The notes below the pieces were generated by a model that was not told where the DNA came from, did no database searches, and worked only from the letters and a program-made list of their open reading frames with translations. Positions 1-45,339 of a DNA stretch of 48,008 nucleotides are shown in pieces. Position 1 is the first letter of the stretch, and each line of letters opens with the position of its first letter. A program made the translations under genes and the position numbers. This stretch comes from Chiloscyllium plagiosum (Eukaryota), in the NCBI RefSeq assembly GCF_004010195.1, contig NC_057753.1:5263505-5311512 (forward strand). Direction: 5' to 3'.

Positions 1-1418
1 GAGCTGGGCTGAGAGGTGGCAAATGGAGTTTAATGTGGACAAGTGTGAGGTGATACACTTTGGCCGGAGTAATCGGAATGCAAAGTTCTGGGCTAATGGT
101 AGGATTCTTGGGAGTGCAGATGAGCAGAGAGATCTCGGTGTCCATGTACACAGATCCCTGAAAGTTGCCACCCAGATTGACAGGGTTGTTAAGAAGGAGA
201 AAGTGAGGACTGCAGATGCTGGAGATCAGAGATGAAAAATGTGTTGCTGGAAAAGCGCAGCAGGTCAGGCAGCATCTAAGGAGCAGGAGAATCGACGTTT
301 TGGGCATAAGCCCTTCTTATTTTGTTGGTCTGAACGTGGTCCGGAGTCCATGTGGGGTCAGCCGGTTCCGTAGACAGGTGCTGAGGAAGGAGATGTGGCT
401 GTGGTAGCGAGTCTGTTTGAGGACGTGGCTGAAGAGCTTCAGGGCCGAGGAGATGACCTGGGGGGTGCAGTGAGAGAGGGACTCACTGAAATCTTTGTAG
501 AGGGAGGAAGAGAGCTTCTTCAAGGAAGGCATCCTTACAAGAGGATTCACAGTAGGTTAAAATCAATTAGGAGAAAGTGAGGCCTGCAGATGCTGGAGAT
601 CAGAGCTGAAAAATGTGTTGCTGGAAAAACGCAGCAGGTCATGCAGCATCCAAGGTGCAGGAGAATTGACGTTTCGGGCATAAGCCCTTCTTATTTTTTA
701 AATATAAGGGCTTATGTCCGAAACGTCGATTATCCTGCTCCTCGGATACTGCCTGACCTGCTGCGCTTTTCCAGCAACACATTTTTCAGGGTTGTTAAGA
801 AGGCATACAGTGTTTTGGCCTTTACTAATACAGGGATTGAGTTCTGGAACCAGGAGGTTATGCTGCAGCTGTACAAAGCTCTGGTACAGCCACACTTGGG
901 GTATTGTGTACAGTTCTGGTCACCGCATTATAAGAAGGATGTGGAAGCTTTGGAAAGGGTGCAGAGGAGATTTACTGGGATGTTGCCTGGTATGGAAGGA
1001 ATGTCTTACGAGGAAAGGCTGAAGGCCTTGAGGCTGTTCTCATTAGAGAGAAGAAGGTTGAGAGGTGACTCAATAGAGACACACAAGATAATCAGAGGGT
1101 TAGATAGGATGGACAGGGAGAGCCTTTTTCCAAGTATGGGGACGGCAAACATGAGGGGACACAATTTTAAAGTGAGGGGAGATAGGTATAAGACAGTTGT
1201 AGAGGTAGTTTCTTTACTCAGAGGATTCTAGTAAGGGTATGGAATGCTTTGCCTGCACGGTAGTAGATTTGCCAAGTTTAAGTGCATTTAAGTCGTCATT
1301 GGACAGGCAAATGGACGTACACGGAATAGTGTAGGTGGGATGGGCTTCAGATTAGTATGACAGGGCGGCACAACATCGAGGGCCGAAGGGCCTGCACTGC
1401 GCTGTAATGTTCTGTGTT
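1..1418 (+). mobile_element. CR1/HER1-type LINE 3' part (RT C-terminus and 3' tail), split by a Penelope-like insertion
   Basis: ORF pieces MEFNVDKCEVIHFG...RDLGV and YKALVQPHLGYCVQFWSP...LFSLERRRLRGD are typical of CR1 ORF2. 3' tail ...gggccgaagggcctgcactgcgctgtaatgttctgtgtt. Confidence 0.93.
198..786 (-). mobile_element. Penelope-like element fragment: tandem pLTRs, ORF N-terminus and an inverted pLTR
   Basis: 17-bp TSD cagggttgttaagaagg at 181-197 and 787-803. pLTR copies at ~198-318 and ~570-692; inverted arms 606-689 / 706-789. Minus ORF 317-550 has HISFLSTCLRNRLTPHGL, resembling the H..FL..C.....P.GL N-terminal motif of Penelope-like ORFs. Confidence 0.85.
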
Positions 1419-1452
1419 TGACCGCACCACTGACCAATTACTTAAGGGAAGA

Positions 1453-1578
1453 TCACCCAGTGCTTGAGCAGTCCCCTACCTCTTCTGGCACCCAGTTATC
1501 GTATTATTGCTAACTGCTTGCATGTTGTTTTTATTCACCTGCATACTGGCCGGTAAACATTGTCACACGTATAATTAG
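1453..1578 (+). pseudogene. Retroviral env C-terminal (membrane anchor) remnant, paralog of 40567-40998
   Basis: Translates as SPSA*AVPYLFWHPVIVLLLTACMLFLFTCILAGKHCHTYN*, matching DCLLLVLFTGIMAYKLCHMYN* ending at 40998. tgtcacaYgtataattagctt is shared at 1561 and 40981. Confidence 0.65.
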
Positions 1579-1597
1579 CTTCCAACCATTGGACAAC

Positions 1598-8597: not shown

Positions 8598-10281
8598 TGT
8601 TCTGTGGAGGTGGGGTGTCATTGGTGGTGGGAATTGTTCATCCTGAAGAAGTCCCACCCGAAATAGTGACCACGAATTTCTTCACTTTCTAATGATGAGT
8701 GATCGGCTGTCTATTTCCCCATGTTTGTTTTTTTTTCCCCTTTCAATCTGTCTGGGACTGCCCCACTGTTCAGGTTTTGTTTGGCCTCAGCTGGAATGTC
8801 CAGTTCTAGGGGGCCGTACTTCAGAAAGGATGTGAAACATTAGGGAGCGTAATTGAGTAATACAGCACAGAAGGAGACCCTTTGGGTCATCGTGTCCAAT
8901 ACAGTCGTCAAGTGCCCATCTAATCCAATCCCTTTTCCCAGCACTTACTCCTTGGTCATTCATCAAAATATTTCTTCAACGTTCTGATGGCTCCTGCCTC
9001 GACGCAGTGAATTCCAGATACCTACCACCCTCCGGCGGAAACGGTTTCTTCTCAAATACCCTCTCATGCTCCTGCCCTGTATCTTCAATCCGTGTAGCTT
9101 TGTTATTGATCCTGTGACTAAACGGGAGAAGTTTCTTCCTGTCATTCCCTACGTCTGCCTCTCATCATTTTGCAACCTCAGTCAGGTCCCCTCTCGATCT
9201 TCTCTGCTTCAAAGACGACACTGGAGCTTGTCCAGCCTTTCTTCATGGTTACACTGCTCCATCCCAGGAACATTGTGGTGAATGTCCCCTGCACCCTCTC
9301 CAATGCAGTGCAGTGACCAGAACTGTGTGCAACACCCCAGCTGTGGCCTGATCAATAACATTTCCAGTTCTATCTTAAACCCTGCTGTTCTGTTCACTAC
9401 CTTAACAAGTAAAGGCAAGTGTCCCATCGGCCTTCTTAACCACCCGTTCCGTTCAGAGTGCAGGTTTGTTTTTCTTTAATCTTTCACGGGATGTGTGTGT
9501 CTCTAACAAGGCTGGCACTAAATGGACCCCGGAGAGAGTGGTTTTGGGCTTACCTCTTCAAAAGACAGCAGCCTGTGGGTTGTCGGGACACCCACAATAT
9601 AGGGAGTTCCCGGATTTCACCCAGTGACCGTGAAGGATCCGTCAGTGCAGTTCCAATCAGGATGGTGTGCGGTGACGGTGATTTGGTTTGAGGTTTCCGC
9701 CTCAAGGAAGTTTCCCCAATGTCCAATAAAAAATATTTGCAAAAGAAAATTGCTGTCAGTCTGGGACAGAAACTCAGTCGGGTTTGCTGCTCATAAATCC
9801 TCCCTTCTAAGCCCTTATCAACAGAGTTTCCAAAATCCATCACAGTCAGTCGAGGATAGAAATTCGGAAGAGCCAAATGCATTTCACTTGGTTTGAGTTT
9901 GTTGTGCGTTAATTCTCCCCTTGTGATGAGAACATGAGGGATCTGTAGAAATGTATGTATAGATTGAGTGTGTAGGCGAAAACATGGCAAGATGCAATTT
10001 TAATGTCGGAAAGTGTGTGGTCATGGACTTTTGGTAGGAAGAATCAAGAGGCAGACTGTGATTTAAATGGAGACTCCAATAAAGAGCAGCACAGAGGGGT
10101 GTTGTGCATGAAACACAAAACAAATTATGGTGCAAGTGCGAGTAATTAAGGGAAATATAATTTGGAAGTTTTGTTTCAAGTGTACAAGATGTTGGTGAGA
10201 CTGCACTTGTGGCAATGTAGCTGAAAATGTGTTGCTGGAAAAGCGCAGCAGGTCAGGCAGCATCCAGGGAACAGGAGAATC

Positions 10282-10309
10282 GACGTTTCGGGCATAAGCC
10301 CTTCTTCAG
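10282..10309 (-). ncRNA. Minimal type-I hammerhead ribozyme motif (inverted pLTR)
   Basis: Reverse complement reads CTGAAGA-A-GGGC-TTAT-GCCC-GAAAC-GTC. Confidence 0.75.
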
Positions 10310-11003
10310 GAATGAGGAAAGTTTGTCCAGCACGCTAAGATAAAAGGTAGGGAGGAGGGACTGGGGGAGGGGCGTCGGAAATGTGATAGGTGGAAAGAGG
10401 TCAAGGTTGCAGGGGTTGCGGTTGCGCCCTCACCTCCCTCCAAGGCCCCAAAGGAAACTTCCACATCCGCCACAGATTCACCTGCACCTCCACACACATC
10501 ACCTATTGCATCCTCTTCACCCAATGTGGCCTCCTCTATATTGGGGAGACAGGCCGGCTACTTGCGGAGCGTTTCAGAGAACACCTCTGGGACACCCGGA
10601 CCAAACAACCCAACCACCCTGTGGCTCAACATTTCATCTCCCCCTCCCACTCCACCAAGAATATGCAGGTCTTTGGACTCCTCCATCGCCAGACCACAAC
10701 AAAACGACGGTTGGAGGAAGAACGCCTCATCTTCCGCCTAGGAACCCTCCAACCACAAGGGATGAACTCGGATTTCACCAGTTTCCTCATCTCCCCTCCC
10801 CCCAGCCTGTCTCAGTCAAATCCATCAAACTCAGCACCGCCTTCCTAACCTGCAATCTTCTTCCCGACCTCTCCGCCCCCACCCCAGTCTGACCTATCAC
10901 CCTCACCTTGACCTCTTTCCACCTATCACATTTCCGACGCCCCTCCCCCAAGTCCCTCCTCCCTACCTTTTATCTTAGCCTGCTGGACAAACTTTCCTCA
11001 TTC

Positions 11004-11031
11004 CTGAAGAAGGGCTTATGCCCGAAACGTC
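11004..11031 (+). ncRNA. Minimal type-I hammerhead ribozyme motif (pLTR)
   Basis: CTGAAGA-A-GGGC-TTAT-GCCC-GAAAC-GTC: CUGANGA box, perfect 4-bp stem II, GAAA box, GUC triplet. Stems I and III are very short, as described for Penelope-like element hammerheads. Confidence 0.78.
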
Positions 11032-11278
11032 GATTCTCCTGTTCCCTGAATGCTGCCTGACCTGCTGCGCTTTTCCAGCATCACATTTTCAGCTCTGATC
11101 TCCAGCATCTGCAGACCTCACTTTCTCCTTGTGGCAATGTACACAATTTTTAAGAAATGATATACTGGCATTGGAAACAGTTCAAAAGAGATTTACTCAG
11201 CTAATTACTAGAGTGAAGGGGTTAACTTATCCAGAATAGCTAAGCAGATTAGGTCTCAGTTATGAAGAAATGCCATAT

Positions 11279-11602
11279 GGGCAGCATGGTGGCTCAGCAG
11301 TTAGCACTGCTGCCTCACAGCGCCAGGATCCCGGGTTCAATTCCAGCCTTGGGCGACTGACTGTGTGAAATTTGCACGTTCTCCCCGTGTCTGCGTGGGT
11401 TTCCTCCGGATGCTCTGGTTTCCTCACACAGTCAAAAGACATGCAGGTCAGGTGAATTGGCCATGCTAAATTGCCCATAGTGTTAGGTGCATTCGTCAGG
11501 GGTAAATGTTGGGGAATGGGTCTGGGTGGGTAGCTCTTCGGAGGGTCGGTGTGGACTTGGGCCGAAAGGCCTGTTTCCACACTGTAGGGAATCTAATCTA
11601 AT
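11279..11602 (+). mobile_element. HE1-type tRNA-derived SINE
   Basis: A box tggctcagcagttag, B box ggttcaattcc, CR1-like tail gggccgaaaggcctgtttccacactgtaggga, then (tctaa)n. Confidence 0.92.
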
Positions 11603-11978: not shown

Positions 11979-14487
11979 TCAGTCCACTCTACCTCCACTC
12001 CCAGTGCCGCCCCACAGCCCTGTGGTATTTTCTCAAACAGCTACAGGAGCTGTAACATCTCGTGTGTTTGCTTCCTCCCTCCTCACTATCCAAGGCTGCA
12101 GACACAGCTTCCAGAATGAGGCAGCGATTTACTTGCACTTCAGTCTAGCCTACTGTGTTTGTTGCTGACAATGCAGTCTCATGTCCATTCTGGAGACAAA
12201 AGTGCAGACTGGGTGACTGTTTTGCAGAACACCTACGTTCTGTCGGCAGATATGACCTTGAGGTTCTGGCTGCCTGCGGTTTCAACACTTCACTGTGTTC
12301 ATTGGCTAACCTTTGGCTCCTATTTCTTATAGTTATTCCAACCCTCATTCACAAGAATTTCTAGACTCCCTCAATGGCAGTCAGTTCAAAAAGGTTTCCT
12401 TGGGTGGAAATTGCTGTGCATAAGTCATCTCCTAACAAAAGCAAACAAAGAACTGTGGATGAGAAAATCAGAAACAAAAGTAGAATTTGCTGGAAAAACT
12501 TTCCAGCAGCACCTGTGGAAAGATATCAGAGAACAGCTTCTTCCCTGTTATTATCAGATATTTGAATGGACCGGTTTAACGTTAATATTGATCCCTCTCT
12601 GCATCTTCTCGGCAGCTAAAACTCTGTTTGCTGCACTCTCTTCAGTTACCCTGATGTACTTGTTACAGTACGATCTATCTGTCAAGCAAGTAAGTCAAAC
12701 TTCACTGTACCTTGGTCCATGTAACTGTAATAAATCAGTTAACGGTTTGGGTCCTATCACCCTTCTTCAGAACTGATCGTAGCTGGCACAAATTTCATAT
12801 ATATGCTAAAGGAGGGGTGGATGGAGACGGGAGGAAGAAATGATAGGTGGAGATGGAGCCCAGAGACAGAGAAAAATAGCCCACCCCAACAACATCCACA
12901 TTCAAAGGATTATTAGATTCCATTTCTGCCACTTCTATTGGATTGCCACACCAGATACATATTCCCCTCCCCTCCTTTGTCAACTTCCCACAAGGGGCAT
13001 TTCTTCTGGAACCCCTCAGTCCACTCTACGTCCACTCCCAGTGCCGCCCCACAGCCCTGTGGTATTTTCTCAAACAGCTACAGGAGCTGTAACATCTCGT
13101 GTGTTTGCTTCCTCCCTCCTCACTATCCAAGGCTGCAGACACAGCTTCCAGAATGAGGCAGCGATTTACTTGCACTTCAGTCTAGCCTACTGTGTTTGTT
13201 GCTGACAATGCAGTCTCATGTCCATTCTGGAGACAAAGTGCAGACTGGGTGACTGCTTTGCAGAACACCGACGTTCTCTCAGCAGATATGACCTTGAGGT
13301 TCTGGCTGCCTGCGGTTTCAACACTTCACTGTGTTCATTGGCTAACCTTTGGCTCCTATTTCTTATAGTTATTCCAACCCTCATTCACAAGAATTTCTAG
13401 ACTCCCTCAATGGCAGTCAGTTCAAAAAGGTTTCCTTGGGTGGAAATTGCTGTGTATAAGTCATCTCCTAACAAAAGCAAACAAAGAACTGTGGATGAGA
13501 AAATCAGAAACAAAGTAGAATTTGCTGGAAAAACTTTCCAGCAGCACCTGTGGAAAGATATCAGAGAACAGCTTCTTCCCTGTTATTATCAGATATTTGA
13601 ATGGACCGGTTTAACGTTAATATTGATCCCTCTCTGCATCTTCTCGGCAGCTAAAACTCTGTTTGCTGCACTCTCTTCAGTTACCCTGATGTACTTGTTA
13701 CAGTACGATCTGTCTGTCAAGCAAGTAAGTCAAACTTCACTGTACCTTGGTCCATGTAACTGTAATAAATCAGTTAACGGTTTGGGTCCTATCACCCTTC
13801 TTCAGAACTGATCGTAGCTGGCACAAATTTCATATATATGCTAAAGGAGGGGTGGATGGAGACGGGAGGAAGAAATGATAGGTGGAGATGGAGCCCAGAG
13901 ACAGAGAAAAATAGCCCACCCCAACAACATCCACATTCAAAGGATTATTAGATTCCATTTCTGCCACTTCTATTGGATTGCCACAGCAGATACATATTCC
14001 CCTCCCCTCCTTTGTCAACTTCCCACAAGGGGCATTTCTTCTGGAACCCCTCAGTCCACTCTACGTCCACTCCCAGTGCCGCCCCACAGCCCTGTGGTAT
14101 TTTCTCAAACAGCTACAGGAGCTGTAACATCTCGTGTGTTTGCTTCCTCCCTCCTCACTATCCAAGGCTGCAGACACAGCTTCCAGAATGAGGCAGCGAT
14201 TTACTTGCACTTCAGTCTAGCCTACTGTGTTTGTTGCTGACAATGCAGTCTCATGTCCATTCTGGAGACAAAGTGCAGACTGGGTGACTGTTTTGCAGAA
14301 CACCGACGTTCTGTCGGCAGATATGACCTTGAGGTTCTGGCTACCTGTGGTTTCAACACTTCACTGTGTTCCTTGTCTAACCTTTGGCTCCTATTTCTTA
14401 TAGTTATTCCAAACCCCATTCACAGGAATTTCCAGACTCCCTCACTGGCAGTCAGTTCAAAAAGGTTTCCTTGGGTGGAAGTTGCTG
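11979..14487 (+). repeat. Tandem array, ~1035-bp unit x ~2.4, built from decayed Penelope-like sequence
   Basis: Unit starts tcagtccactctac at 11979, 13016 and 14051. Contains decayed GIY-YIG (CRLGDCFAEH) and a degenerate minus-strand hammerhead at ~12738-12770 and ~13773-13805. Confidence 0.95.
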
Positions 14488-14539
14488 CAGTTTCTAACTG
14501 GGGTCTTGGGGATGGGGGGGCATGTTCCTGTCTCAAGGT

Positions 14540-14812
14540 TCCGCCCTTTGTCCCTTTAAATCCCACCCTCGGTCCTTCCAGCTCCAGCTCCAGCGATGCG
14601 CATGCTTCGCTCTGTAGACCGGTCCCGCCCCTTCGTTGACTCCGATTGGTTGGAGGACCAGCCCGGTGCCACAGTCATCCAGGCCTGCCCCTTCACTCAC
14701 TATTGGTCCGCATCCTGCGTCAATCATTCCCCCCCCCCCCCGCCCGGAGAGGCAGACATGCGCAGCATGATTTGCTCCCTGAACGACTGTGCACATGCGC
14801 GGTGGCCATTTT
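14540..14812 (+). promoter_or_regulatory. CpG-rich candidate promoter of the ZNF gene
   Basis: GC boxes ccgccc (14541, 14625); inverted CCAAT (attgg 14645, 14702); NRF1-like tgcgcatgc (14597) and catgcgc (14757, 14794); YY1-like gccatttt (14805). Local CpG enrichment. Confidence 0.65.
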
Positions 14813-15174: not shown

Positions 15175-15421
15175 AAGGAGAAATGTTTGTCTGAGGGGAA
15201 AGGTTTCAAACATCAGTGTGACTGGAAGAGCACCGAGACACAGACACACCTGAACGAGAGCGTTCCAGTGAACCGACTGTGCAAGGAGCTTTCCTTTTGT
15301 TGCATGACTACAAAAGTAAATTGCACCGTTTAAAGCGGGGCAAAGACGCACATGTGTTTTGTGTCTGGCTCAAGATTTAACTGATCCTTCAGTGTGGACA
15401 GGGCACAAAGACCCTGGCACC
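15175..15421 (+). pseudogene. Decayed C2H2 finger repeats upstream of the ZNF start codon
   Basis: Finger-like remnants with stops and frameshifts: GEMFV*..RFQTSV*LEEHRDT, FQ*TDCARSF, ..RFN*S....HKDPGT, leading into MEKP. Confidence 0.6.
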
Positions 15422-16891
15422 ATGGAGAAACCATGTAAATGTGTGGAGTGCGGGAAAGGATTCAGATTTCCATCCAGGCTGGACGTTCATCGGCGCAAAC
15501 ACACTGGGGAGAAGCCATTTACCTGCTCCACGTGTGAAAAGGGATTTGCACGTTTATGCAGCTTACAGATACACCAGAGAACTCATACTGGCGAGAAATC
15601 ATTCACCTGTGCCAAGTGTGGTAAGGGGTTCGCTCATTTATCCAGTTTACATGTACACCAGAGAACTCACACTGGGGAGAAACCGTTCATCTGTACCAAG
15701 TGCGGTAAGGAGTTTGCTCATTCATCAACTTTACACGTACACCAGAGAATTCACACTGGGGAGAAACCATTCACCTGCTCTGAGTGTGGGAAGGGATTTG
15801 CACAGTCATCAAAGTTATATCGACACCAGAGAACTCACACTGGGGAGAAACCATTCATCTGCTCTGACTGTGGGAAGGGATTCGCTCGGTTATCCACCTT
15901 GCAGGTGCACCAGGGAATACACTCTGAAGAAAAAATGTTCACCTGCTCCAACTGTGAGCAAAGATTTGCTCATTTATCCAGCTTACAGACACACCAGAGA
16001 AGTCACGCTGGGGAGAAATCATTCATCTGCACCACATGTGGTAAGGGGTTCGCTAATTCATCTGGATTGCATGTACATCAGAAAGTTCACGCAGGGGAGA
16101 AACCATTCACCTGCTCTGACTGTGGGAAAGTGTTTGCTCAGTCCTCCAAGTTACGGCAACCCCAGCAAACTCATACTGGAGAAAAACCATTTACCTGCCC
16201 CGATTGCGGGAAGGAATTCACTCAGTTATCCGACTTACATTCACACCAGGAAGCGCACACCGGGGAGAAACCATTCCCTTGCTCTGACTGTGGGAAGGGA
16301 TTCACTGAGTTGTCCACTTTACAGGTGCACCAGAGAATCCACACTGGAGAGAAACCGTTCACCTGCCCTGAGTGCGGGAAGAGATTCTCTCAGTTATCCA
16401 ACTTAAATCGACATCAGAGAACTCACACTGGAGAGAAACCGTTCACGTGCTATGAGTGCGGGAAGAGATTCTCTCAGTTATCCAACTTAAATCAACATCA
16501 GAGAACTCACACAGGAGAAAAGCCATTCATCTGCCCTGAGTGTGGGAAGGGATTCACTCAGTTATCCAATTTACATTCACACCAGGGAGCTCACTCTGGG
16601 AAAAAAACTTTCACCTGCTCTGAGTGTGGGAAGGGGTTTGCTCAGTCGTCCAAGTTATGCGAACACTGGAGAATTCACACTCGGGAGAAACCATTCATCT
16701 GCTCTGACTGTGGGCAGGGATTTGTTCAGGCATCCACCTTACGTGTACACCAGCGAACTCACACAGGAGAAAGACCGTTCACTTGCCTTAAGGGCGGGAA
16801 GAGTTTCACCCAGTTATCCAACTTACAGCAACCCCAGAGGACTGACTGTCAGCTGCGCACTATCAGGCAGGCAAGCTCACATCCAGAGTGA
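15422..16891 (+). CDS. Tandem C2H2 (Kruppel-type) zinc-finger protein, 489 aa, 17 repeats (15 canonical), no KRAB/SCAN/BTB in this ORF
   Basis: Uninterrupted ORF; first ATG in strong context caccATGg; 28-aa CxxC...HxxxH repeats with TGEKP linkers. Finger 9 (H>P) and finger 17 are degenerate. Confidence 0.93.
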   Translation: MEKPCKCVECGKGFRFPSRLDVHRRKHTGEKPFTCSTCEKGFARLCSLQIHQRTHTGEKSFTCAKCGKGFAHLSSLHVHQRTHTGEKPFICTKCGKEFAHSSTLHVHQRIHTGEKPFTCSECGKGFAQSSKLYRHQRTHTGEKPFICSDCGKGFARLSTLQVHQGIHSEEKMFTCSNCEQRFAHLSSLQTHQRSHAGEKSFICTTCGKGFANSSGLHVHQKVHAGEKPFTCSDCGKVFAQSSKLRQPQQTHTGEKPFTCPDCGKEFTQLSDLHSHQEAHTGEKPFPCSDCGKGFTELSTLQVHQRIHTGEKPFTCPECGKRFSQLSNLNRHQRTHTGEKPFTCYECGKRFSQLSNLNQHQRTHTGEKPFICPECGKGFTQLSNLHSHQGAHSGKKTFTCSECGKGFAQSSKLCEHWRIHTREKPFICSDCGQGFVQASTLRVHQRTHTGERPFTCLKGGKSFTQLSNLQQPQRTDCQLRTIRQASSHPE

Positions 16892-22956: not shown

Positions 22957-22974
22957 ATCTATCCACTTGCTGAG

Positions 22975-23060
22975 TTCTGAGGAAAGATGACCGGATCCGA
23001 AATGCTAACTCTGACTTCTCTTCAGACCTGCTGAGCTTTTCCAGCAACATCTGTTTTTTT
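22975..23060 (+). mobile_element. Short pLTR-like fragment of a second Penelope-like family, degenerate hammerhead
   Basis: ctgaggaaagatgaccggatccgaaatgcta...gacctgctgagcttttccagca; related to 44335-44525 and ~43310-43400. Confidence 0.6.
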
Positions 23061-23584: not shown

Positions 23585-23783
23585 AAGACTGTGGCGCAGG
23601 AAAAGCACAGCTGGTCAGGCAGCGTCCGAGGAGCAGGAGAGTCGACCGAGATTCCTGATGAAGAGCTTATGCATGAAACGTCGACTCTCCTGCTCCTCGG
23701 ATACTGTCTGACTGGCTGTACTTTTCCAGCGCTGTACGTTTCGCCTCTGAACTCTCCAGCATCTGCAGTCCTCCCTTTCTCCT
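23585..23783 (+). mobile_element. Palindromic Penelope pLTR-only element
   Basis: Inverted arms around ctgatga-agagcttatgcat-gaaac-gtc (23655-23682); ends ctccagcatctgcagtcctccctttctcct. Confidence 0.8.
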
Positions 23784-27467: not shown

Positions 27468-28338
27468 TGAAGATCTGGACCCCTCGGTGTGGGGTGGGGT
27501 CTCTCTGCACTGTGATTGATCAATAAGCACTGTCAATCATTCTGGTCCTTTCAGACTTCACTTTCTATTTCTTCATACGGTTGGGCACAGATCGTTAAGA
27601 AACACAGTGGTTGTGTACTTCCGTATTCCTTGGAGGAGCTGCACATATGATTTAAAACATGGACATCTTTATACTTTTCTTAAAGCAAGGTACAGGCCAT
27701 GATCGTATAGTACATTCAGACAATTTACCAATCAATTTACAATATCGCTTTATTTGACCATTGCTTGGTCCAGTGATATTTCCTGGGAACCAACTTTGTT
27801 TTCGAACAGGTAAAAGCAATGACTGCAGATGCTGGAAACCAGATTCTGGATTAGTGGTGCTGGAAGAGCACAGCAGTTCAGGCAGCATCCGAGGGGCAGT
27901 AAAGTTGATTTTACTGCCCCTCAGATGCTGCCTGAACTGCTGTGCTCTTCCAGCACCACTAATCCAGAATTTGTTTTCCAGCAGTTAGGCCACCCTTATC
28001 TCACTAACCGAGCCACTGCACCTGCATTTGAAGGTCAGTTAGGCTGGCCAGTAATGTCTGACCTCATCTAGTTATTTCTATGCTGTAAAGGGAGCATTGC
28101 CTGCTAATCTCTATCGAAGCAGACATGGTTAGTTAATTGTGCAGCTATAGCAGAATTAAAAGCCATTTTATGCAGCTTTTAGCAGAATTGTCAATTTGCA
28201 GCCTGGAAGCCATTTTGTCATATTATTTGCATTGAGAAGCCATTTTATTGCCACCTAAGTTATTTAAGAGCTTGTGTTAAGCGGTTGTTCCTGACAACAA
28301 CTAGTTACCTCAGCCTGCATTCAGGTTTCAGATGCTCA
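27468..28338 (-). repeat. 3' LTR of the ERV
   Basis: TG...CA ends (tgaagatctg ... cagatgctca); homologous to 33985-34826. Confidence 0.88.
27810..27983. mobile_element. Palindromic Penelope pLTR-derived element within the 3' LTR
   Basis: Near-perfect ~74-bp arms 27830-27903 / 27910-27983 with loop gttgat. Confidence 0.85.
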
Positions 28339-28694
28339 TAGAGTCATAGAGATGTACAGCACGGAAACAGACCTTTCGATCCAACCCGTCCATGCCAACC
28401 AGATATCCCAACCCAGTCTAGTCCCATCTGCCAGCACCCCACCCATATCCCTCCAAACCCTTTCTATTTATATACCCATCCAAATGTCTCTTAAATGTTG
28501 CAATTGTACCAGCCTCCATCACTTCCTCTGGCAGCTCATTCCATACCCGTACCACCCTCTGTGTGGAAAAAGGTGCCCCTTAGGTCTCTTTTATATCTTT
28601 CCCCTCTCACCCCTCTAGTTCTGGACTCCTCGTCCCCCAGGGAAAAGACTTTGTCTATTTACCCTATCCATGCCCCTCATAATCTTGTAAACCC
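28339..28694 (-). mobile_element. CR1 3' fragment inserted between the PPT and the 3' LTR
   Basis: Reverse tail tagagtcatagagatgtacagcacgg directly abuts the LTR end. Confidence 0.88.
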
Positions 28695-29319: not shown

Positions 29320-31090
29320 GAGTTAGGAAGCATGGACTGGGAGCAATTGTTCCATGGTAAAGGCACTATAGACATGTGGAGACTGTTTAAGGAACAGTTG
29401 TTGGCGAGTGATGAATAAATATGTCCCTCTGAGACAGGCAAGATGGGGTAAGATAAAGGAACCTTGGATGACGAGAGCGGTGGAGCTTCTCGTCAAAAGG
29501 AAGAAGGTAGCTTCCATGAGGTGGAGGAAGCTAGGGTCAAGCTCAGCTCTAGAAGGTCCTGAAGAAGTGCTTATGCCCGAAACGTCGATTCTCCTGTTCC
29601 CTGGATGCTGCCTGACCTGCTGCGCTTTTCCAGTAACACATTTTCAGCTCTAGAGGCTTACAGGCAGGCGAGGAAGGAGCTCAAAAGTGGTCTGAGGAGA
29701 GCCAGGAGGGGGGCACGAGAAAGGCTTGGCAGAACGGATTAGGGAGAACACAAAGGCATTTTACACTTATGTGAGGAATAAGAGAATGGTCAAAGAAAGA
29801 GGGCCGATCAGGGATAGCATAGGGAACTTGTGTGTGGAGTCTGAGGAGGTAGGGGAAGCCCTAAGTGAATTTTTTGCTTCTGTCTTTACGAAAGAAACAA
29901 ACTTTGTTGTGAATGAAACCTTTGAAGAGCAGGTATACATGCTGGAATGGATAGAGATAGAGGAAGCTGATGTGTTGAAAATTTTGTCAAACATTAAGAT
30001 TGACAAGTCGCCAGGCCCGAACCAGATTTGTCCTCGGCTGCTTTGGGAAACGAGAAATGCAATTGCTTCGCCACTTGCGAAGATCTTTGCATCCTTGCTC
30101 TCCACTGGAGTCCTATCTGAGGACTGGAGAGAGGCAAATGTAATTCCTCTCTTCAAGAAAGGAAATAGGGAAATCCCCGGCAATTACAGACCAGTAAGTC
30201 TCACGTCTGCAAGGTATTAGAAAGGATTCTGAGGGATAGGATTTATGACCATCTGGAAGAGCATGGCTTGATTAAATGCAGTCAACACAGCTTTGTGAGG
30301 GACGGGTCATGCCTCACAAACCTTATTGTGTTCTTTGAGGATGTGACTAGAAAAGTTGATGAGGGTCGAGCTGTGTATGTGGTGTATATGGACTTCCGCA
30401 AGGCATTTGATAAGGTTCCCCATGGTAGACTCATTCAGAAGGTCAGGAGGAATGGGATACAGGGGAACTTAGTTGTCTGGATACAGAATTGGCTGGCCAA
30501 CAGAAGACAGCGAGTGGTAGTAGAAGGAAAATATTCTGCCTGGAAGTCTGTGGTGAGTGGTGTTCCTTGGGCCTCAACTGTTTGTAATTTTTATTAATGA
30601 CTTGGATGAGGGGATTGAAGGAAGGGTCAGCAACTTTGCTGACGACACAAAGGTTGGTGGTGTCGTTGACAGTATAGAGGGCTGTTGTAGGCTACAGTGG
30701 GACATTGACAGGATGCAGAGATGGGCTTACACGTGGAAGATGGAGTTCAACCTGGATAAATGCGAGGTGATGCATTTTGGAAGGTCGAATTTGAAAGCTG
30801 AGTACAGGATTAAGGATAGGATTCTTGGAAGTGTGGAGGAACAGAGGGATCTTGGTGTGCAGGTACATAGATCCCTTAAAATGGCCACCCAAGTGGACAG
30901 GGTTGCTAAGAAAGCATATGGTATTTTGGCTTTCATTAACAGGGGGATTGAGAGAGGGGACCTAATTGAGGTGTACAAGATAATGAGAGGCATAGATAGA
31001 GTCGATAGCCAGAGACTATTTCCCAGGGCAGAAATGGCTAACACGAGGGGTCAGTTTTAAGCTGGTTGGAGGAAAGTATAGAGGGGATGT
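29320..31090 (+). mobile_element. CR1 ORF2 fragment inside the ERV
   Basis: KSPGPN, NYRPVSLTS, YMDFRKAFDKVPH, FADDTK. Confidence 0.92.
29555..29643 (+). mobile_element. Single short Penelope pLTR fragment with hammerhead motif
   Basis: Flanking direct repeat tcagctctaga (29543-29553, 29644-29654); ctgaaga-agtgcttatgccc-gaaac-gtc at 29559-29586. Confidence 0.85.
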
Positions 31091-32812: not shown

Positions 32813-32928
32813 GGCTTTTGCCCGAAACGTCGATTTCTTGCTCCTCGGATGCTGCCTGACCTGCTGTGCTTTTCCAGCACCTCTCAAATCTTGACTCTAA
32901 TCTCGGGCATCTGCAGTACCCACTTCCA
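32813..32928 (+). mobile_element. Short Penelope pLTR fragment
   Basis: 17-bp TSD tcatggcctgtaagaag (32796-32812, 32929-32945); begins within the hammerhead (gggc-tttt-gccc-gaaac-gtc). Confidence 0.88.
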
Positions 32929-33984: not shown

Positions 33985-34826
33985 TAAGGATCTGGACCCG
34001 TCTGGGTTGGGGGTAGGGGTGGGGGGTCTCTCTATTCCGTGATCGGTCAATAACACTCACAATCAGTCTGGTTCTTTAAAACTTTATTTCTTCACACGGC
34101 CGGGCACAGATCGTCCAGAAACACAGTGGTCGTGTACATCCGTATTCCTCGAAGGAGCTGCACGCTTGACTTAAAACATAGACGTTTTTATATTTTTTCT
34201 CAAAGCAAGGTACAGGCCATGATCGTATAGTACATTCAGACAATTACCAGTCAATTTACGATATAGCTTTATTTGACCATTACTTGGTTCAGTGATTAGA
34301 TTAGATTAGATTACTTACAGTGTGGAAACAGGCCCTTCGGCCCAAGTCCACACCGACCCGCCGAAGCGTAACCCACCCAGACCCATTCTCCTACATTTAC
34401 CCCTTCACCTAACACTACGGGCAATTTAGCATGGCCAATTCACCTAACCCACACATTTTTGGACTGTGGGAGGAAACCCACGCAGACACAGGGAGAATGT
34501 GCAAACTCCACACAGAGAGTCGCCTGAGGCGGGAATTGAACCCGGGTCTCTGGCGCTGTGAGGCAGCAGTCCTAACCAACTTTATTTGCTAATCTCTATT
34601 GAAGCAGACTGTGGTTAGTTAATTATGCAACTATAACAGAATTAAAAGCCATTTTATGCAGCTTTTAGCAGAATTGTCAATTTGCAGCCTGGGGGAAGCC
34701 ATTTTGTCATATTATTTGCATTGAGGAGCCATTTTATTGCTGCTGAAGTTATTAAGAGCTTGTGTTAAGTGGTTGTTCCTGACAACAACTAGTTACCTCA
34801 GCCTGTATTCAGGTTTCAGATCCTCA
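33985..34826 (-). repeat. 5' LTR of the ERV
   Basis: Minus strand starts TGAGGATCTG; TATAAAA (34186-34192) precedes AATAAA (34083-34088) in U3-R-U5 order; interrupted by a SINE. Confidence 0.88.
34295..34578 (-). mobile_element. HE1-type SINE in the 5' LTR
   Basis: (attag)n tail followed by reverse SINE body; an adjacent LTR segment is missing relative to the 3' LTR. Confidence 0.9.
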
Positions 34827-35644: not shown

Positions 35645-36455
35645 ATAGAACATAGAACATTTCAGCGCAGTACAGGCCCTTCGGCCCTCGATGTTGCGCC
35701 GACCTGTCATACCAACCTGAAGCCCATCTAACCTACACTATTCCATGTACGTCCATATATTTGTCCAATGACGACTCAAATGCACTTAAACTTGGCGAAT
35801 CTACTACCGTTGCAGGCAAAGCATTCCATACCCTTACTACTCTCGGAGTAAAGAAACTACCTCTGACATCTGTCCTATATCTATCACCCCTCAATTTAAA
35901 GCTATGCCCCCTCGTGTTTGCCGTCACCATACTTGGAAAANNNNNNNNNNNNNNNNNNNNNNNNNNNNNNNNNNNNNNNNNNNNNNNNNNNNNNNNNNNN
36001 NNNNNNNNNNNNNNNNNNNNNNNNNNNNNNNNNNNNNNNNNNNNNNNNNNNNNNNNNNNNNNNNNNNNNNNNNNNNNNNNNNNNNNNNNNNNNNNNNNNN
36101 NNNNNNNNNNNNNNNNNNNNNNNNNNNNNNNNNNNNNNNNNNNNNNNNNNNNNNNNNNNNNNNNNNNNNNNNNNNNNNNNNNNNNNNNNNNNNNNNNNNN
36201 NNNNNNNNNNNNNNNNNNNNNNNNNCCCTCAATTTAAAGCTATGCCCCCTTGTGCTCACTGTCACCATACTTGGAAAAAGGCTCTCCCTGTCCACCCCAT
36301 CTAACCCTCTGATTATCTTGTATGTCTCTATTAAGTCACCTCTCAACCTTCTTCTCTCCAACGAAAACAGCCTCAAGTCCCTCAGCCTTTCCTCGTAAGA
36401 CCTTCGCTCCATACCAGGCAACATCCTAGTAAATCTCCTCTGCGCCCTTTCCAAA
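35645..36455 (-). mobile_element. CR1 3' fragment spanning the assembly gap
   Basis: tagaacatagaaca tail; LERAQRRFTRMLP...RRLRGDLIETYKI. Confidence 0.9.
35941..36225. other. Assembly gap (285 N)
   Basis: Run of N; the flanks overlap by ~53 bp of similar but non-identical CR1 sequence. Confidence 0.99.
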
Positions 36456-37639: not shown

Positions 37640-37944
37640 TTAGATTAGATTTAGATTACATTACAGTGTGGAAACAGGCCCTTCAGCCCAACAAGTCCAC
37701 ACCGACCAGCAACCCACCCATACCCCTACATTTACCCCTTACCTACAGGCAATTTAGCATGGCCAATTCACCTGACCTGCACATCTTTGGACTGTGGGAG
37801 GAAACTGGAGCATCCGGAGGAAACCCACGCAGACAAGGGGAGAACGTGCAAACTCCACACAGTCAGTCACCTGAGGCGGGAATTGAACCCGGGTCTCTGG
37901 CGCTGTGAGGCAGCAGTGCTAACCACTGGGCCACCGTGCCACCC
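37640..37944 (-). mobile_element. HE1-type SINE
   Basis: Full-length reverse copy with (ttaga)n tail. Confidence 0.92.
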
Positions 37945-38470
37945 ACGAGTTGTCTGTCTGTAATGGGTACAAGGTATTGGATCCACTATCCCAGCCAGCC
38001 AGTCATACCTGGGGACAGGGAGATATTTATCGGATATTATTACAGGGTAAAGATATCCCTGATGGGGTGGGGGGGGGGGGGAGAGAAGAAAAAACAAAGG
38101 TGGGGTAAGCATGAATATGGTATGGTGAATCGGATATTAAACTAACAACAAAACTCCCTTCTGTTGCAGCAAACTGATGACGTGGTAACTGCTGCAGTGC
38201 CTGTGTTTTCTCCTGCCTTGAATGACACGAGATCTACCATCACCTGCACAATCTCACCACAGGATACGGTCTCGAGGATGGAGTCGTCATAATAATAACT
38301 GTAGGCAAAATAATTTTCATTGTTCACTGGGTGAAGAGAGTACCTTGTTGAACATTACATGCACGTGTAACAACCCACGTACTCCCATCTCCAGGGAACA
38401 GGAGCTTAGTCATCTTTATCCCACATGGCTACTGTTCACTAAAAAACAACTACTGTTACTCTGTGACATA

Positions 38471-38593
38471 GTTAAAAATCACACACGACACCAGGTTATA
38501 GTCCCACAGGTTCATCTGGAAGGACACGCTTTCATAGCACTGTTCCTTCATGAGGTAGCTAGTGGAGTAAAGTCATAGGGCACAGAATTTATG
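38471..38593 (-). mobile_element. Short fragment of a third, probably Penelope-like, family
   Basis: aaaaatcacac..caccaggttatagtcc; degenerate minus-strand hammerhead (ctcatga-aggaacagtgctat-gaaag); related to 47030-47122 in the opposite orientation. Confidence 0.55.
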
Positions 38594-38796: not shown

Positions 38797-39118
38797 CATA
38801 GAATCCCTGCAGTGTGGAAACAGATCCATACTGACCCTCTGAAGAGTAACCCACCCAGACCCATTCCCCTGCCATATTATCCTACATTTACCCCTGACTA
38901 ATGCACCTTGAATATTATGGGCTGTTTAGGCCAGCCAATTCACCCTAACCTGCACATCTTTGGACTGTGGGAGGAAACCGAAGCACCCAGAGGAAACCCA
39001 CGCAAACACTGGGAGAAGGATGTGCAAACTCCACACAGACAGTCGTCCGAGGTTGGAAACAAACCCGGGTCCCTGGCCCTATGAAGCAGTATCACTAACC
39101 ACAGCCACCGTGCCAGCC
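38797..39118 (-). mobile_element. HE1-type SINE
   Basis: Reverse copy catagaatccctgcagtgtgg...gccaccgtgcc. Confidence 0.9.
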
Positions 39119-39348: not shown

Positions 39349-40998
39349 CAGAGGTGTGGTAGAAGCAATGTACTCTGTTTCATTCTAGATGGAGCAGGGA
39401 CAGAGACAGGTGCATTAAATTCTAATGATATTGCAACTTTGCGAAATGGGATTGTTAAAGTTGGGCAACTATCAAATTAGCTGCTGTATGGACCAAGCCA
39501 TTAGCACATAGAGATTTAGCAGATTGGTCTCTGACCAACATGGTTTGGAGGTTTGCTGATAGCCTATCTAGGGCCTCACACTTAGGCGGATCTTAATGCA
39601 GAAGTCATTTGAACATAGTGCAATTTGTTAGAGGGATTTGACACATGAACTAACAACCTCGTTGCTATCCAAATTTCTGTGCTGTTGAAAACGGTTATTT
39701 AGTCTCACACATGCTAACTTAATGCTTAGAAGTGATGCATTAAAATCTAATTGTAACCCCATAGTATGACATGCTACTATTTTGACTTTAAATAGTAAAC
39801 AGTGATAAATATGGTGCAAGTTTATCGCCCCATCTGTTGGGAGGTATGTTGTGGGAACCTGTATTTATGGGAAATGGCTGGATGATAACAATCAAACCCA
39901 CAGGTGGGTGGTTGTGAATAGCCTGAAGGCCTAGTGTGCCTCTTCCACACCCCTGCCTTCGAACCATGTAGATTGTAGTCTAGCAGGGCTACCTGCACAT
40001 GAAGGAAATTACTGTCAGTGATACAGCCATTCACACAACTGGTCCTGTCCACAGATGTGTAACTAGTATTCATACAGTATATCTTAATGATGAGAGAGAG
40101 AGAGATAGAAAATCATCCACTCATCAACCTTTATAGTGACAAAAGTTATGTTCTCCATGATACTGTTGGAAATAAACATACAGAGTTAAAGAACAGCAGC
40201 TGGTAACTGTGAACTGCTGCACTACAGTTACAACATTTCAAAGACACATGGACAGGTACGTGAATAGGAAAGGTTGAGAGGGATATGGGCTAAACACAAG
40301 CAAGCAGGACTAGTTTAGTTTGAGAAACTTGGTCAGCGTGGACGAGTTGGCTTGAAAGGTCTGTTTCCATGCTCTACGACTCTAGGCACCTCTATATAGG
40401 ACGTTTGATAAACTACAGGTGTTCCTTGCACATTATAAACACGCTTCACTGTCGTTTGATAGCAGTGTACCATGATGTATTGCAGCGAGAATCTGCCATC
40501 ACTTACAGCAGTGATCAATTAATTCATAAAGTGGACAATTTAGGAATTCTTACCATATGTAATTAGTGGGATGTATTTAACGGGTGGTCACCAATGCTTC
40601 AGCAGCTTTTATTGGCACCAGCGTATTTTTTTTAGATTAGATTCGATTCCCTACAGTGTGGAAACAGGCCCTTGGCCCAACAAGTCCACACCGATCCTCT
40701 GAAGAGCAACCCACCCAGACCATTTCCCTCTGACTAATGCACCCAACACTGTGGGCAATCCACCCTAACCTGCACATCTTTGGACTGTGGGAGAAAACCG
40801 GAGCATCTGGAGGAAACTCACACAACCACAAGGAGAATGTGCAAACTCCACACAGACAGTCGCCCGAGGCTGGAATTGAAACTGGGACCCTGGTGCTGTG
40901 AGGCAGCAGTGCTAACCACTGAGCCACCCTCAGACTGTTTGCTTCTTGTTTTATTTACTGGTATAATGGCTTATAAACTTTGTCACATGTATAATTAG
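39349..40998 (+). pseudogene. Decayed env-like gene of the class III-like retrovirus
   Basis: RCGRS-NVLCFILDGAGTETGALNSNDIATLRNG (cleavage site / fusion-peptide-like), Cys-rich middle, *WDVFNGWSP (40564-40593), hydrophobic anchor ending at 40998. Interrupted by a CR1 tail (~40215-40385) and a SINE. Confidence 0.6.
40632..40928 (-). mobile_element. HE1-type SINE
   Basis: Reverse copy splitting the env anchor region. Confidence 0.92.
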
Positions 40999-41003
40999 CT
41001 TGC

Positions 41004-41581: not shown

Positions 41582-43798
41582 TGGAGGTAGGGGCTGGCAA
41601 ATGTTCATTCTAAAGAAGTCCCACCCGAAATAGTGACCATTCATTTGACTTTCTCGTCATGAGTGATCTACTGTGCAATTCCCCACGTTTGGTTTTCCAT
41701 TTCAATTTGTCCAGGGCTGCCTCAGTATTCAGGCTATGTTTCAGTTTGCATGACACTGCAGTTTGGTCTCAGCTGGAACATCGTGTCTGGTTCTGGGGGC
41801 CTGCCTTTAAGAAGGATGTGAAGGATTCAAGAGAGTCATCGAGTGATGCAGCACAGGAAGAGACCCTTTGGGTCATTGTGTCCGAGTCAGTCATCAACTA
41901 CCTATCTATTCTAATCGCTTTTCCCAGCACTTGGTGCGTGGTCAGTCATCAAAATATTTTTAACTTGTTGTGATGGTTCCCGTCTCTCCGCAGATACCTA
42001 CCACTCTCTGGCTGAAACAATTTATTCTTAAATACCCTCTAATGCTACTGCCCTGTCTCTTACATCTATGCTCCCTTGTTATTGATCCTGTTACTAATGA
42101 GGAAAAGTTCTTCCTGTCATTCCTATGTCTGCCTCTCATAATTTTGTAGATCTCAATCAGGTCCTCCCTCAACCTTTTCTCCTTCAAAGAGAACACCGGA
42201 ACATACTCTGCCTCTGTTCGCAGTTAAGCTTCTCCATCCTCGGAACATCCCAGTGAGTCTCCTCTGTACCCTCTCCAGAGTAGTCACAATCCTTCTACGA
42301 TGCAGTGACCAGAATCGCACACAGTACTCCAGCTGTGGCTTGAGTAATGTCATATAAAGCTCCACCACAACCTCCCTGCTCTTGTATTCAATGCCTCGAC
42401 AAATAGAGGCAAGTAAATTATGTGCCGACTTAACCACCTGTTCTGTTTGGAGTGCAGATTTGTTTTAAACTTTCACAGGATGTGGGTGACACCAGCGAGA
42501 CTGACATTTAGTGACCATCACTCTATGTCGGGACTCCTACAGTGCTGTTAAGTTGGGAGTTCCAGGATTTCACCTAGCGACAATGAAGGAATGGTTGATA
42601 GAGTTCCAAGTCAGGATGGCATGTGATGATGGCGATGTTCGGTTTGAGGTTTCTGCCTGAAAACGTTTCCCCTAACGTCCAATAAAAGGTATTTCCAACA
42701 GATAATCCATCTCCGTCCGGGACAGAAATTCAGTAGAGTTCGCTGTACATAAATCCACCCCCATCTCAGCCCCTACAATGGAGCTTCCAAAGTCCATCAC
42801 TATCAGAAATGCAGAAGCGCTGAATACAGTTTGTTCTGTGTTAATTCTCCTGTACCCGTATTGTGAGGAGGACATGAGCAATCTGCAAAGGTATAAACAT
42901 TGGTGGGCAAAAACATGGCAGATGCATTTTCTTGCAGCAAAGTGTATGGTCATGCTCAGTAGTAGGAAGAATCAAAAGGCAGGCTGTTATTTATATGGAA
43001 ACTCCAAAAGAAGAGCACATGGAGGGGTCTTGTGTATGGAACACAGAACAAATTATCATGCAGGTGCAGCAAGTAATTAAGAAGGCAAATAAAATTTGGG
43101 TCTTTATCGCGAGTTGATGTGAGTTTAAAAATAGAAAAGTTTTCCTTCAACTGTACAAGGTGTTGCTGAGACTATACCTGCAGTACTGTATACAGTTATT
43201 TTTAAAAAAGTGATATACTGGCATTAGAAATAGTTCAAAAGCTGGGATGGTTCCGAGGATGAAGGGGCTGACTTATCGAGAATGGCTAAAGAGGTTAGGT
43301 CTCAGTTCTGAAGAAATGTCCTACCAGACTCAAAATACTAACTCTTTATCTCTTAAGATGCTTTCACACTTGTTGAGTTGCTCTAGCATTTTCTATGTTT
43401 TTTCTAGGCTTTTATTAATTAGTGTTAACAACAATGGGCTGATCTTATTGAAGCATACAAGTTTCTAAGAGGTGGGGGTTGACGGGATAGATGTTGAGAT
43501 AATCCCACTCCTGGAGATCTATGAAACATGGATACACTTCCACAGAATAAAGGGACTCTCACCTAAAACTGAGAAGGGAAGGAAATTTTCCTGTGAGGGT
43601 ACTGAATTCTGGAATTCTCTACCCCACAGAACTAGAGAGGTTACATTACTGAAAGTAATTAAACAGGATGTATATAGATTTTTGAAATATCAGGCTGTTG
43701 AAGCAATGAGGAGTTGTCACAAAAGGCAGTAGAGGCCTGGGGCAGATTAGCCATGATCTTTCAAAAAAGCTGGAGAGGCTTGAGGAGATGAATGGCCT
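41582..43798 (+). repeat. Segmental duplication copy 2
   Basis: Same order and orientation of old repeat fragments as 8605-11975, without the Penelope element (10220-11127) and SINE (11279-11602). Confidence 0.85.
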
Positions 43799-44334
43799 GT
43801 GCCTACTCCTATTGTAATGTTTATTCCAACCATCTGTCAAAGAAGTTTCCAAACTTCCTACTGTCACTCAGGATAGAAATCAAAAACAGCCAAATATTTC
43901 TTTTCTCAGGTGAAAGCTGCTGTGTGTATAAGTCCTCCCCTTCTACCAGGCTTGAATGGCTGACTGGCCAATTTGTGTTCCTACCTCCTATGGTTAGAAT
44001 CTTGTTTTCTGGAGATGGTTATTGCCTGGCCATGGTGTGGATGAATACCACTTGCCGGTTTTCAGTCAAGATTGAATTGAGTCTCATTTAGCTTCACATG
44101 GATACGGACTACTTCTGGTGCTGAATATCGTACAATCATTGGGGAATATAATGAGCGAGGGAAAAGCATTGCTGAGTCAACTGCAGTTAGTTGGACCAAA
44201 GGCACAATCCTGAGGAACTCCTGCAGTGATTGAACTCGAGCACCCATAAGGGTCTTCCTTTGTATTAGAGAGCACTCTAACAAGTGGAGTGTTTTCATCC
44301 TAATCCCCACAAAGCTCATTCAGGCTTCCTTGAC

Positions 44335-44525
44335 AAAAACAGGAATTGCTGGAAAAGCACAGCAGGTCCGGCAGCATCTGCGGAGAGAAATCAGATGAGG
44401 AAGGATCACAGGACCCGAAGCATTAACTTTGATTTCTCTGCCCAGATGCTGCCAGACCTGTTGAGCTTCTCCAGCAACTTCTGTTTCCATTTCTGATTTA
44501 CAGCATCTGCAGTTCTGTCGGGTTT
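44335..44525. mobile_element. Palindromic pLTR-like element (second family)
   Basis: Arms ttgctggaaaagcacagcaggtccggcagcatctg / cagatgctgccagacctgttgagcttctccagcaa around a degenerate hammerhead (tgaggaaggatcacaggacccgaagc). Confidence 0.75.
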
Positions 44526-45128
44526 TTAAATTAGTACAGCCTCATTGATCTAATTCTGGTCAGCAGGAAAAGTGTGACATTGACAGACCGGTGAAGGATT
44601 TAGCAATAACTTGCTCACTGAACATTCAGTTGTGTTTCCACCAAGGCCAGTCAGCTCCTGCCAGTGTGATACCCTTAGTGCAAATATGGACAAAAGAGCT
44701 GAGAATTCCTGAGCTGAGGTTACTGACCGGATGCTGCATTCAGTTAAATGTAGCCTTGATGTTAAAGGCAGTTACTCTGGTATTGTCGCTGCATCTTCTC
44801 ACACAACAAGCTTTTAAGATGAGTGAATTATATCATTCCAGAATTAAAAGATTCATCCATATGTTAAAATAATATTTGGACATCCACTCTGGCCAGAAAA
44901 TTAAATTTCAAAGATGATTCTTCAATCAGAAAGCTTCTGAAATTCACCATTTAGCCAGTAGTCTTTCTTCCTACGAAATACAACACAAATCATACAGTAT
45001 TTTGTGAAGTAGTAGTAATTTCATTTGATTTTTCTTTATATGACTAATTAATTCTGAGGTAATTTTTTTTAATATAATGCCCTTGGAAAAACTACCTCCA
45101 AATAAATATTAGACTGCCTTAAAGAATT

Positions 45129-45339
45129 AGGAGAAAGTGAGGACTGCGGATGCAGGAGATTGGAGTTGAAGAGTGTGGTGCTGGAAAAGCACAGGCGGCC
45201 AGGCAGCATCCAACGAGCAGGAGAGTTGACATTGCGAGCATAAGCTCTTCATCAGGAAGCGCTTATGCTCAAAACGCCGACTCTCCTGCTCCTCGATGCT
45301 GCCTGCCCGGCTGTGCTTTTCCAGCACCACACTCTGACT
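45129..45339 (-). mobile_element. Palindromic Penelope pLTR-only element
   Basis: 15-bp TSD ctgccttaaagaatt (45114-45128, 45340-45354); back-to-back decayed hammerheads at the fold-back centre (~45228-45280). Confidence 0.88.

Follow-up and report, generated by a model that had tools for sequence, protein, structure and literature searches.

The window analysed here, a 48,008-nt stretch of the Chiloscyllium plagiosum genome (RefSeq assembly GCF_004010195.1, contig NC_057753.1, positions 5,263,505 to 5,311,512), is repeat-rich animal DNA in which a profile and similarity search finds 12 inserts bearing the pseudo-long terminal repeat (pLTR) of Penelope-like elements (PLEs). Seven of these belong to what we call family A, three to family B and two to family C (Table 1), and longer family-B pieces lie, in addition to the 12, inside a 1036-bp triplication. 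Most are short, and this account is concerned with how the short copies arose and why so many of them begin at one base of the element, at the edge of its hammerhead ribozyme. Window coordinates are used throughout, and positions within the element follow the numbering of the 908-bp copy at 10220-11127, on which 11000 is the modal 5′ end.

A previous sequence-only reading of the window had reported ten or more separate inserts at about one copy per 3-5 kb. The density agrees with our 12 inserts in 48 kb, and all the motif sites that it named are real, including those near 292, 706, 22977, 44395 and 38525, but its sites at 292, 668 and 706 fall in a single 589-bp insert and those at 10282 and 11004 in the single 908-bp one, and its list lacked 27806-27969, 43304-43393, 46988-47080 and the discrete 5′ ends. 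The family-A pattern, with up to three mismatches allowed, matches seven times in the window against 0.00 expected (100 shuffles): exactly at 10282-10309 and 11004-11031 only, and with one to three mismatches at 668, 23655, 29559, 32804 and 45228. The two exact matches had been read as intact ribozymes, which they are, but both sit in the 908-bp copy that carries a GIY-YIG endonuclease fragment, and among the ten inserts shorter than 220 bp not one combines an intact core with an intact stem II and an intact cleavage triplet; 29559 comes nearest, with one stem II mismatch and a stem I that lacks its first two bases. The five clean target-site duplications (TSDs) of 11-17 bp noticed earlier were all found (17, 14, 11, 17 and 15 bp). 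One further TSD, at the 27806 insert, is weak (9 bp, exact), and the other six inserts have none, a search for repeats of at least 8 bp finding nothing at 22973, 23590, 38465, 43305 and 44337 and just an A/T-run match at 46988.

The short inserts are ends of endonuclease-positive PLEs, probably of the Neptune type. The endonuclease fragment matches the Pfam GIY-YIG family at E 0.002, below the curated cut-off, and is 47% identical to the relative P0007, a 902-aa protein in which RVT_1 and GIY-YIG both score above cut-off; the closest named proteins are from Chiloscyllium punctatum, at 76% and 69% identity. No reverse transcriptase domain was found in the window inserts, only in the relatives P0007 and P0010. 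At the other end of the element, the pLTR at 692-569 directly adjoins an open reading frame (ORF) start at 568-319, in a partial-tandem arrangement, and the translation of 323-532 is 39% identical to P0007 residues 7-63 (E 7e-10). A Cx4CxxC linker stands in the consensus of the relatives and is degenerate in the window copy; it points to the Neptune type, a CX2-5CxxC linker ahead of the endonuclease being, along with reverse transcriptase phylogeny, a mark of that clade (PMC8557442). Direct arms terminate at 11129 and inverted arms at 11085-11094, with the same ends in the read data, and an inverted truncated copy with an optional 30-40 bp tail is a known PLE pattern (PMC8557442, PMC3846280; for general PLE structure, PMC8969392). 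The sequence-only reading took the inserts to derive from PLE pLTRs with minimal hammerheads, and the GIY-YIG fragment, the inverted arm, the tail of about 36 nt and the exact core in two arms bear this out; the hammerhead is of type I. The ORF P0001 (10344-10892) was rejected as the PLE frame, being in the wrong reading frame, and the exact 28-nt pLTR pattern had no match in viral, genome or metagenome contigs. An index search for RNA data sets carrying the stretch listed none, a result that counts neither for nor against its expression.

The 5′ ends of the short copies are not scattered. Among the 13 family-A arms, eight start at 11000-11012, three at about 11029-11032, and two are long. With the two arms that share a junction counted once, 7/12 fall in one 13-nt window, which under simulated memoryless truncation, taking any such window, has P 0.011 for a mean extra length of 30 nt and P 4e-4 to 7e-5 for 100-150 nt; counted per insert (5/7), the corresponding values are 0.06 and 0.002-0.0005. 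Starts were read by eye.

Reads from four of 24 runs (X1, X10, X16 and the raw RNA run X21), aligned to 10430-11209 at 85% likeness, place the boundary more exactly. Summed contig depth over 11002-11079 exceeds that over 10898-10975 by 4.9 times in X1, 14.4 times in X10, 43 times in X16 and 10.4 times in X21, and depth collapses beyond 11131. Loose ends just before 11000 occur in all four runs (272, 305, 44 and 187 records), and agreement with the consensus beyond them is merely 0.31-0.40, so the flanks at 11000 are unrelated; at the other breakpoints among those listed (10804, 11050, 11084 and 11093) agreement is 0.52-0.79, as expected for subfamily differences. The 3′ ends lie at 11128-11129 and 11085-11089, and also near 11093. 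Four joints linking 11034-11041 to 11000-11001 are listed without their kind, and joints in single contigs link 10738, 10801 and 10804 to 10999-11000. Exact 11129-to-11000 joints are rare, in at least 23 contigs of X1 (whose contig counts are incomplete) and 17 of X10, against at least 1265 and 1290 loose ends at 11129, and the window holds no pLTR tandem array. Random 5′ truncation of autonomous elements, the origin assumed for dispersed minimal hammerheads in PMC4209133 and the explanation that the sequence-only reading had named as fatal to its own proposal, does agree with a gradual decay of depth upstream of the step (in X21, about 31 at 10430 and 110-196 at 10898-10975) and with the two long arms. 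The modal start nevertheless falls on one base in all four runs, two further families start at the matching position, and the simulation disagrees with memoryless truncation; we consider it scarcely credible as the full account. The 5′ truncation of the short copies is not random.

The base at this boundary, A11000, is at once the A of an initiator-like motif (10998-11004), the first base of stem I, and a position 32 nt ahead of the cut site. In family B, the solos at 22973 and 43304 have as their first base the counterpart of A12774 in a longer B copy, where a TATA-like run lies at -29. A distant, non-shark family behaves similarly: in 80 metagenome loci retrieved through a related endonuclease, a route that selects for long copies, 43 hammerhead-like matches occur in 38 loci, and in the largest family a TATA hexamer stands 37-41 nt upstream of core base C3 in 20 of 25 matches, these copies being related and not independent. 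That spacing predicts a start at about -7 from C3, and of the 71 pieces matching the reference L028, 59 are long and three of the other 12 begin at -7, -7 and -6; one locus (L037) holds a solo of about 155 bp with an 11-bp TSD. In two families, B and the distant one, a TATA thus lies 29-31 nt upstream of the start A and is absent from the short copies. One further distant-family copy (L013:723-847, plus strand) has its 5′ end on the TATA box, at -38 from C3, and not at the predicted start. A splice acceptor at 11000 was considered and rejected, as family A has no AG before it and the loose ends have no common upstream exon. A sigma-70 promoter scan of the window gave nothing, its bacterial model being irrelevant to a eukaryote.

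The ribozyme itself occupies 11000-11035, with stem I at 11000-11003/11032-11035 (3/4 pairs), the core at 11004-11010, stem II at 11012-11015/11020-11023 and a palindromic stem III; the stem I of 3-4 bp falls short of the roughly 6 bp of a canonical type I hammerhead. Across 14 aligned copies (13 distinct), 81.4% of stem I and II cells are paired against 74.2% after shuffling, a value reached in 1 of 500 shuffles, and pairing falls to 18-45% when the alignment is slid. Two-sided changes affect 5/8 stem pairs (reached in 26 of 500 shuffles, relatedness inflating such scores), mostly between families A and B; judged from the alignment, this shows selection in the parent lineages and not in the short copies. 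The Rfam scan of the window gave no hammerhead model match, and its sub-threshold miRNA matches at 27865-27948, 653-742 and 23624-23702 are head-to-head hairpins. A self-complementary hexamer spans the cut site and gives a competing duplex of -21.9 kcal/mol, lower than the -18.9 of the active-like pairing when stem I is left out, in a model that cannot score the junction, and the unit as a whole folds no more stably than shuffles (z 0.62). The minimal architecture is reported to show no activity as a monomer and little as a dimer (PMC4209133). Downstream, a putative hairpin at 11049-11115, with an outer stem and an inner 5-bp stem, is kept in eight arms of families A and B and adjoins the inferred reverse transcription start sites, with two-sided changes in just 2/20 pairs.

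Our preferred explanation, to which we assign a probability of roughly 0.6, is that the short inserts are run-off cDNAs, made by internal initiation of reverse transcription on an RNA that starts at +1, and that they are dead on arrival and not retrozymes. A longer copy would be transcribed from its own promoter starting at A11000, the hammerhead forming the first 36 nt or so of the RNA; the PLE protein would initiate reverse transcription internally, at 11129 or at about 11093, on the 5′ pLTR; and the cDNA would reach the RNA 5′ end after about 130 or 94 nt before its attachment to the target. If both strands of the target were extended, the head-to-head pairs would result, with one arm tailed and the other tail-less, and jumps from the RNA end would yield the rare 130-nt dimers and internal joints. 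Internal initiation at two sites, which define the tail, and extension of both strands are documented in vitro for PAc, an element of the lizard Anolis carolinensis (PMC11167929), and are proposed for the shark element by analogy. PAc requires the first 172 nt of its ORF on the template and can dispense with ribozyme cleavage (PMC11167929). The short copies have neither the upstream TATA nor that downstream ORF-start segment, which favours by-products; most should be dead from the outset and would then decay. Of this scheme, the anatomy, the discrete ends, the TSDs and the decay were observed directly, whereas the start site, the template and the inactivity of the copies are proposed.

Several points weigh against this explanation. 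The clustering is weak at a mean extra length of 30 nt, above all per insert, and the 13-nt width was picked after the data had been seen. Depth summed over contigs does not measure copy number, and at 85% likeness diverged 3′ untranslated regions of other subfamilies may enlarge the step; the loose-end evidence comes from 24 listed rows, 2009 others lying outside the list, and it is among those listed that no loose end appears at 11032. The loose initiator pattern is present at 1.1% of window positions, family A has only a weak TATA-like stretch at about -30, and among the 80 loci six further reference families yielded no short pieces near the ribozyme and, by eye, no TATA. In the raw RNA of X21 no pile of molecule starts or ends was seen, a poly(A) single-cell library being ill suited to this. 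The shark element is known here from partial copies and not from a full-length one. Finally, Penelope of Drosophila virilis has a TATA-less internal promoter (PMC2377424) and in Adineta vaga pLTRs alone are enough for mobilisation in trans (PMC3846280), so solos could be active.

These last two reports also speak for self-propagation in the manner of a short interspersed element (SINE), in which a 130-nt unit with an internal promoter would be transcribed from solos and mobilised in trans by an autonomous PLE. Discrete 5′ and 3′ ends, TSDs and the large excess over upstream sequence all suit such a unit, and non-autonomous PLE derivatives are known (PMC8557442). We nevertheless think it unlikely: the solos lack both the TATA that two families have 29-31 nt upstream and the ORF-start segment that PAc templates need (PMC11167929), the young solo at 29554 shares 95.7% identity with the long copy, and X21 gives similar depth on both strands over 11002-11079 (548-723 against 707-996), as expected from host transcripts. 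ARAGORN finds no tRNA gene in the window, which is not a test for SINEs, the head of the short copies being a hammerhead. A structure-induced stop would also put the ends at a fixed base, with reverse transcription starting in a 3′ pLTR and dropping off at the 5′ edge of a folded, possibly protein-bound or dimeric, hammerhead. In families A and B alike, stem I does begin at 11000, and the PAc ribozyme needs protein in order to fold (PMC11167929), but such a stop would lie on the distal side of a 3-4 bp helix and not where the enzyme enters the fold, the unit is no more stable than its shuffles, and the TATA spacing in two families favours a start site; we regard this account as decidedly doubtful.

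The retrozyme-like behaviour suggested by the sequence-only reading is not supported, the copies not being bounded by the cleavage site, tandems being rare and no short copy in the window having an intact ribozyme. A retrozyme cycle, in which tandem units self-cleave as dimers, circularise and re-insert, would explain the exact head-to-tail 130-nt joints and fits the covariation of stems between families, and a 2026 preprint traces retrozymes back to pLTRs (10.64898/2026.07.22.740005); three arms of family A and one of family B do have their first base at the cut site or shortly beyond it. Arms near the cut pivot on the self-complementary hexamer, though, and are accounted for without cleavage, and the same hexamer favours the competing duplex. 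With a modal 5′ end 32 nt before the cut site and neither an array nor an intact short copy in the window, this cycle is highly improbable.

Run-off from a start site need not cover every insert. In the compound insert at 198-786, which reads on the minus strand as an inverted tail-less arm, a pLTR, 250 nt of ORF start and a second pLTR, both direct pLTRs begin at the identical junction, with the same five extra bases and without the first three core bases. The junction occurring twice, the template may already have carried it, which makes the 374-bp unit of pLTR and ORF start at 198-571, known from this single locus, a candidate non-autonomous element, though +1 and the initial core bases are absent from it; a template jump that happened twice would be the alternative. 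A wider and more tentative proposal joins these strands: the hammerhead would be the first 36 nt or so of a Neptune-type mRNA, 30 nt after the TATA, and its cleavage would remove only the capped leader and might switch the RNA from translation to use as template. The solos would then record the start site and, in the minority from 11029-11041, in vivo cleavage, and the 374-bp unit, with its putative protein-binding RNA, would be a true mini-element. We consider this possible, with chances well below even.

Much of this anatomy has precedents. The minimal hammerheads that Cervera and de la Pena (2014; PMC4209133) described in metazoan pLTRs have the same core, an extra base before stem II, a palindromic stem III and a short stem I, and the thousands of dispersed single motifs per genome were put down there to truncated PLEs; the parts of that paper available to us give no fixed 5′ boundary, unlike the sharp one here at the first base of stem I. 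Neptune-type PLEs (PMC8557442, PMC3846280) share the C-terminal GIY-YIG domain, the pLTR followed by the ORF start, the adjoining inverted copy, the 30-40 bp tail and TSDs. The solo pLTRs of A. vaga, the sole open-access match for PLE solos (PMC3846280), are described as without TSDs and ascribed to recombination or deletion, whereas TSD-flanked direct insertions dominate here. PAc, a Poseidon element (PMC11167929), has two 3′ ends set apart by the tail, a ribozyme about 60-100 nt upstream and an AT-rich target, and its scheme explains the head-to-head pairs; its ORF, unlike that of the shark element with an ATG just past the tail, begins at stem II. Non-LTR retrozymes (PMC7229834; 10.64898/2026.07.22.740005) are likewise short, non-coding and pLTR-related with a type I hammerhead, and can occur as dispersed monomers, but they are defined by circular RNA and by tandem repeats of a unit whose ribozyme is complete (and canonical in PMC7229834). 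In the window nearly every unit stands alone or in a head-to-head pair, and the ribozymes are minimal and for the most part broken. The class of element, the type of ribozyme and the tail are already known, and what may be new are the start-site-bounded solos: we did not find them in the open-access literature, and neither the main text of PMC11167929 nor its supplement text, as far as available, discusses or matches them, though subscription papers and supplementary figures may hold them. What the PLE hammerhead does and where the pLTR came from are treated as open questions (PMC8557442; PMC2377424). If the short copies are run-off products, any assembled genome would map a PLE start site and both reverse transcription start sites to the base, the ribozyme would be placed at the very 5′ end of the mRNA, and shark counts of dispersed hammerheads or 'retrozyme monomers' may mostly be of dead by-products.

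Table 1. pLTR-bearing inserts of the window, their parts and a related longer copy
Feature	Position	Strand	Remarks
Compound family-A insert, 589 bp	198..786	-	17-bp TSD 181-197/787-803
5′ end of PLE ORF after pLTR tail	319..568	-	323-532 translates as PLE N-terminus
5′-truncated family-A copy with inverted arm, 908 bp	10220..11127	+	14-bp TSD 10206-10219/11128-11141
Inverted tail-less arm (element 10905-11094)	10220..10407	-	Intact hammerhead core 10309-10282
GIY-YIG endonuclease fragment, C-terminus of PLE ORF	10408..10845	+	
Initiator-like motif	10998..11004	+	A at 11000 is modal 5′ end of short copies, inferred transcription start
Minimal type I hammerhead	11000..11035	+	Cut predicted after C11031
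Optional PLE tail, about 36 nt	11094..11129	+	Between two inferred reverse transcription start sites; PMC11167929
Longer family-B copy with 3′ untranslated region	12737..12850	-	TATA-like run at -29, initiator A 12774; duplicate near 13772-13885 (A 13809)
Family-B solo	22973..23060	+	Starts at +1-equivalent A; ribozyme decayed; no TSD found
Family-A head-to-head pair	23586..23783		Tail-less minus arm begins at about 11029, tailed plus arm at exactly 11000; disrupted stem II
Diverged family-A-type head-to-head pair	27806..27969		Pivots on palindrome at cleavage site; no core
Family-A solo, 90 bp, tail-less	29554..29643	+	From 11002; 11-bp TSD 29543-29553/29644-29654; one stem II mismatch
Family-A solo, 116 bp	32813..32928	+	Start 11003-11012; 17-bp TSD 32796-32812/32929-32945, its end resembling the ribozyme core (5′ microhomology)
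Family-C copy	38470..38560	-	Decayed core; ends approximate
Family-B solo	43304..43393	+	Starts at +1-equivalent A; decayed
Family-B head-to-head pair	44337..44519		Minus arm begins just past cut site, plus arm within core
Family-A head-to-head pair	45129..45339		Arms from 11001 (tailed) and about 11007-11009 (tail-less); 15-bp TSD 45114-45128/45340-45354
Family-C head-to-head pair	46988..47080		No ribozyme core

The near-identical 1036-bp triplication spans 11979-14549 and contains decayed PLE endonuclease pieces at 13109-13270 and 14144-14308, together with the family-B pLTR pieces on the opposite strand. A core-like motif at 8641-8716 (plus strand), with a weak profile score (E 0.51), is perhaps an old decayed copy. 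Elsewhere, a SINE-like repeat, which may resemble shark HE1, has many copies (11281-11489, 17858, 21450, 22902, 34424-34588, 37743-37945, 38936-39102, 40756-40928 and 46089-46219), and a 211-bp tandem duplication at 24699-25122, 98% identical, lies within a repeat resembling a long interspersed element. An N gap of 285 bases occupies 35941-36225, and ORFs listed across it are artefacts. A 210-aa frame at 28677-29309 on the minus strand has a weak, sub-threshold Pfam match to the envelope HR1-HR2 region (E 6.5e-4) and is possibly an endogenous envelope remnant, and a 523-aa open frame at 15320-16891 on the plus strand, with a 16-copy, 84-bp C2H2 zinc-finger array, is probably a host gene exon.

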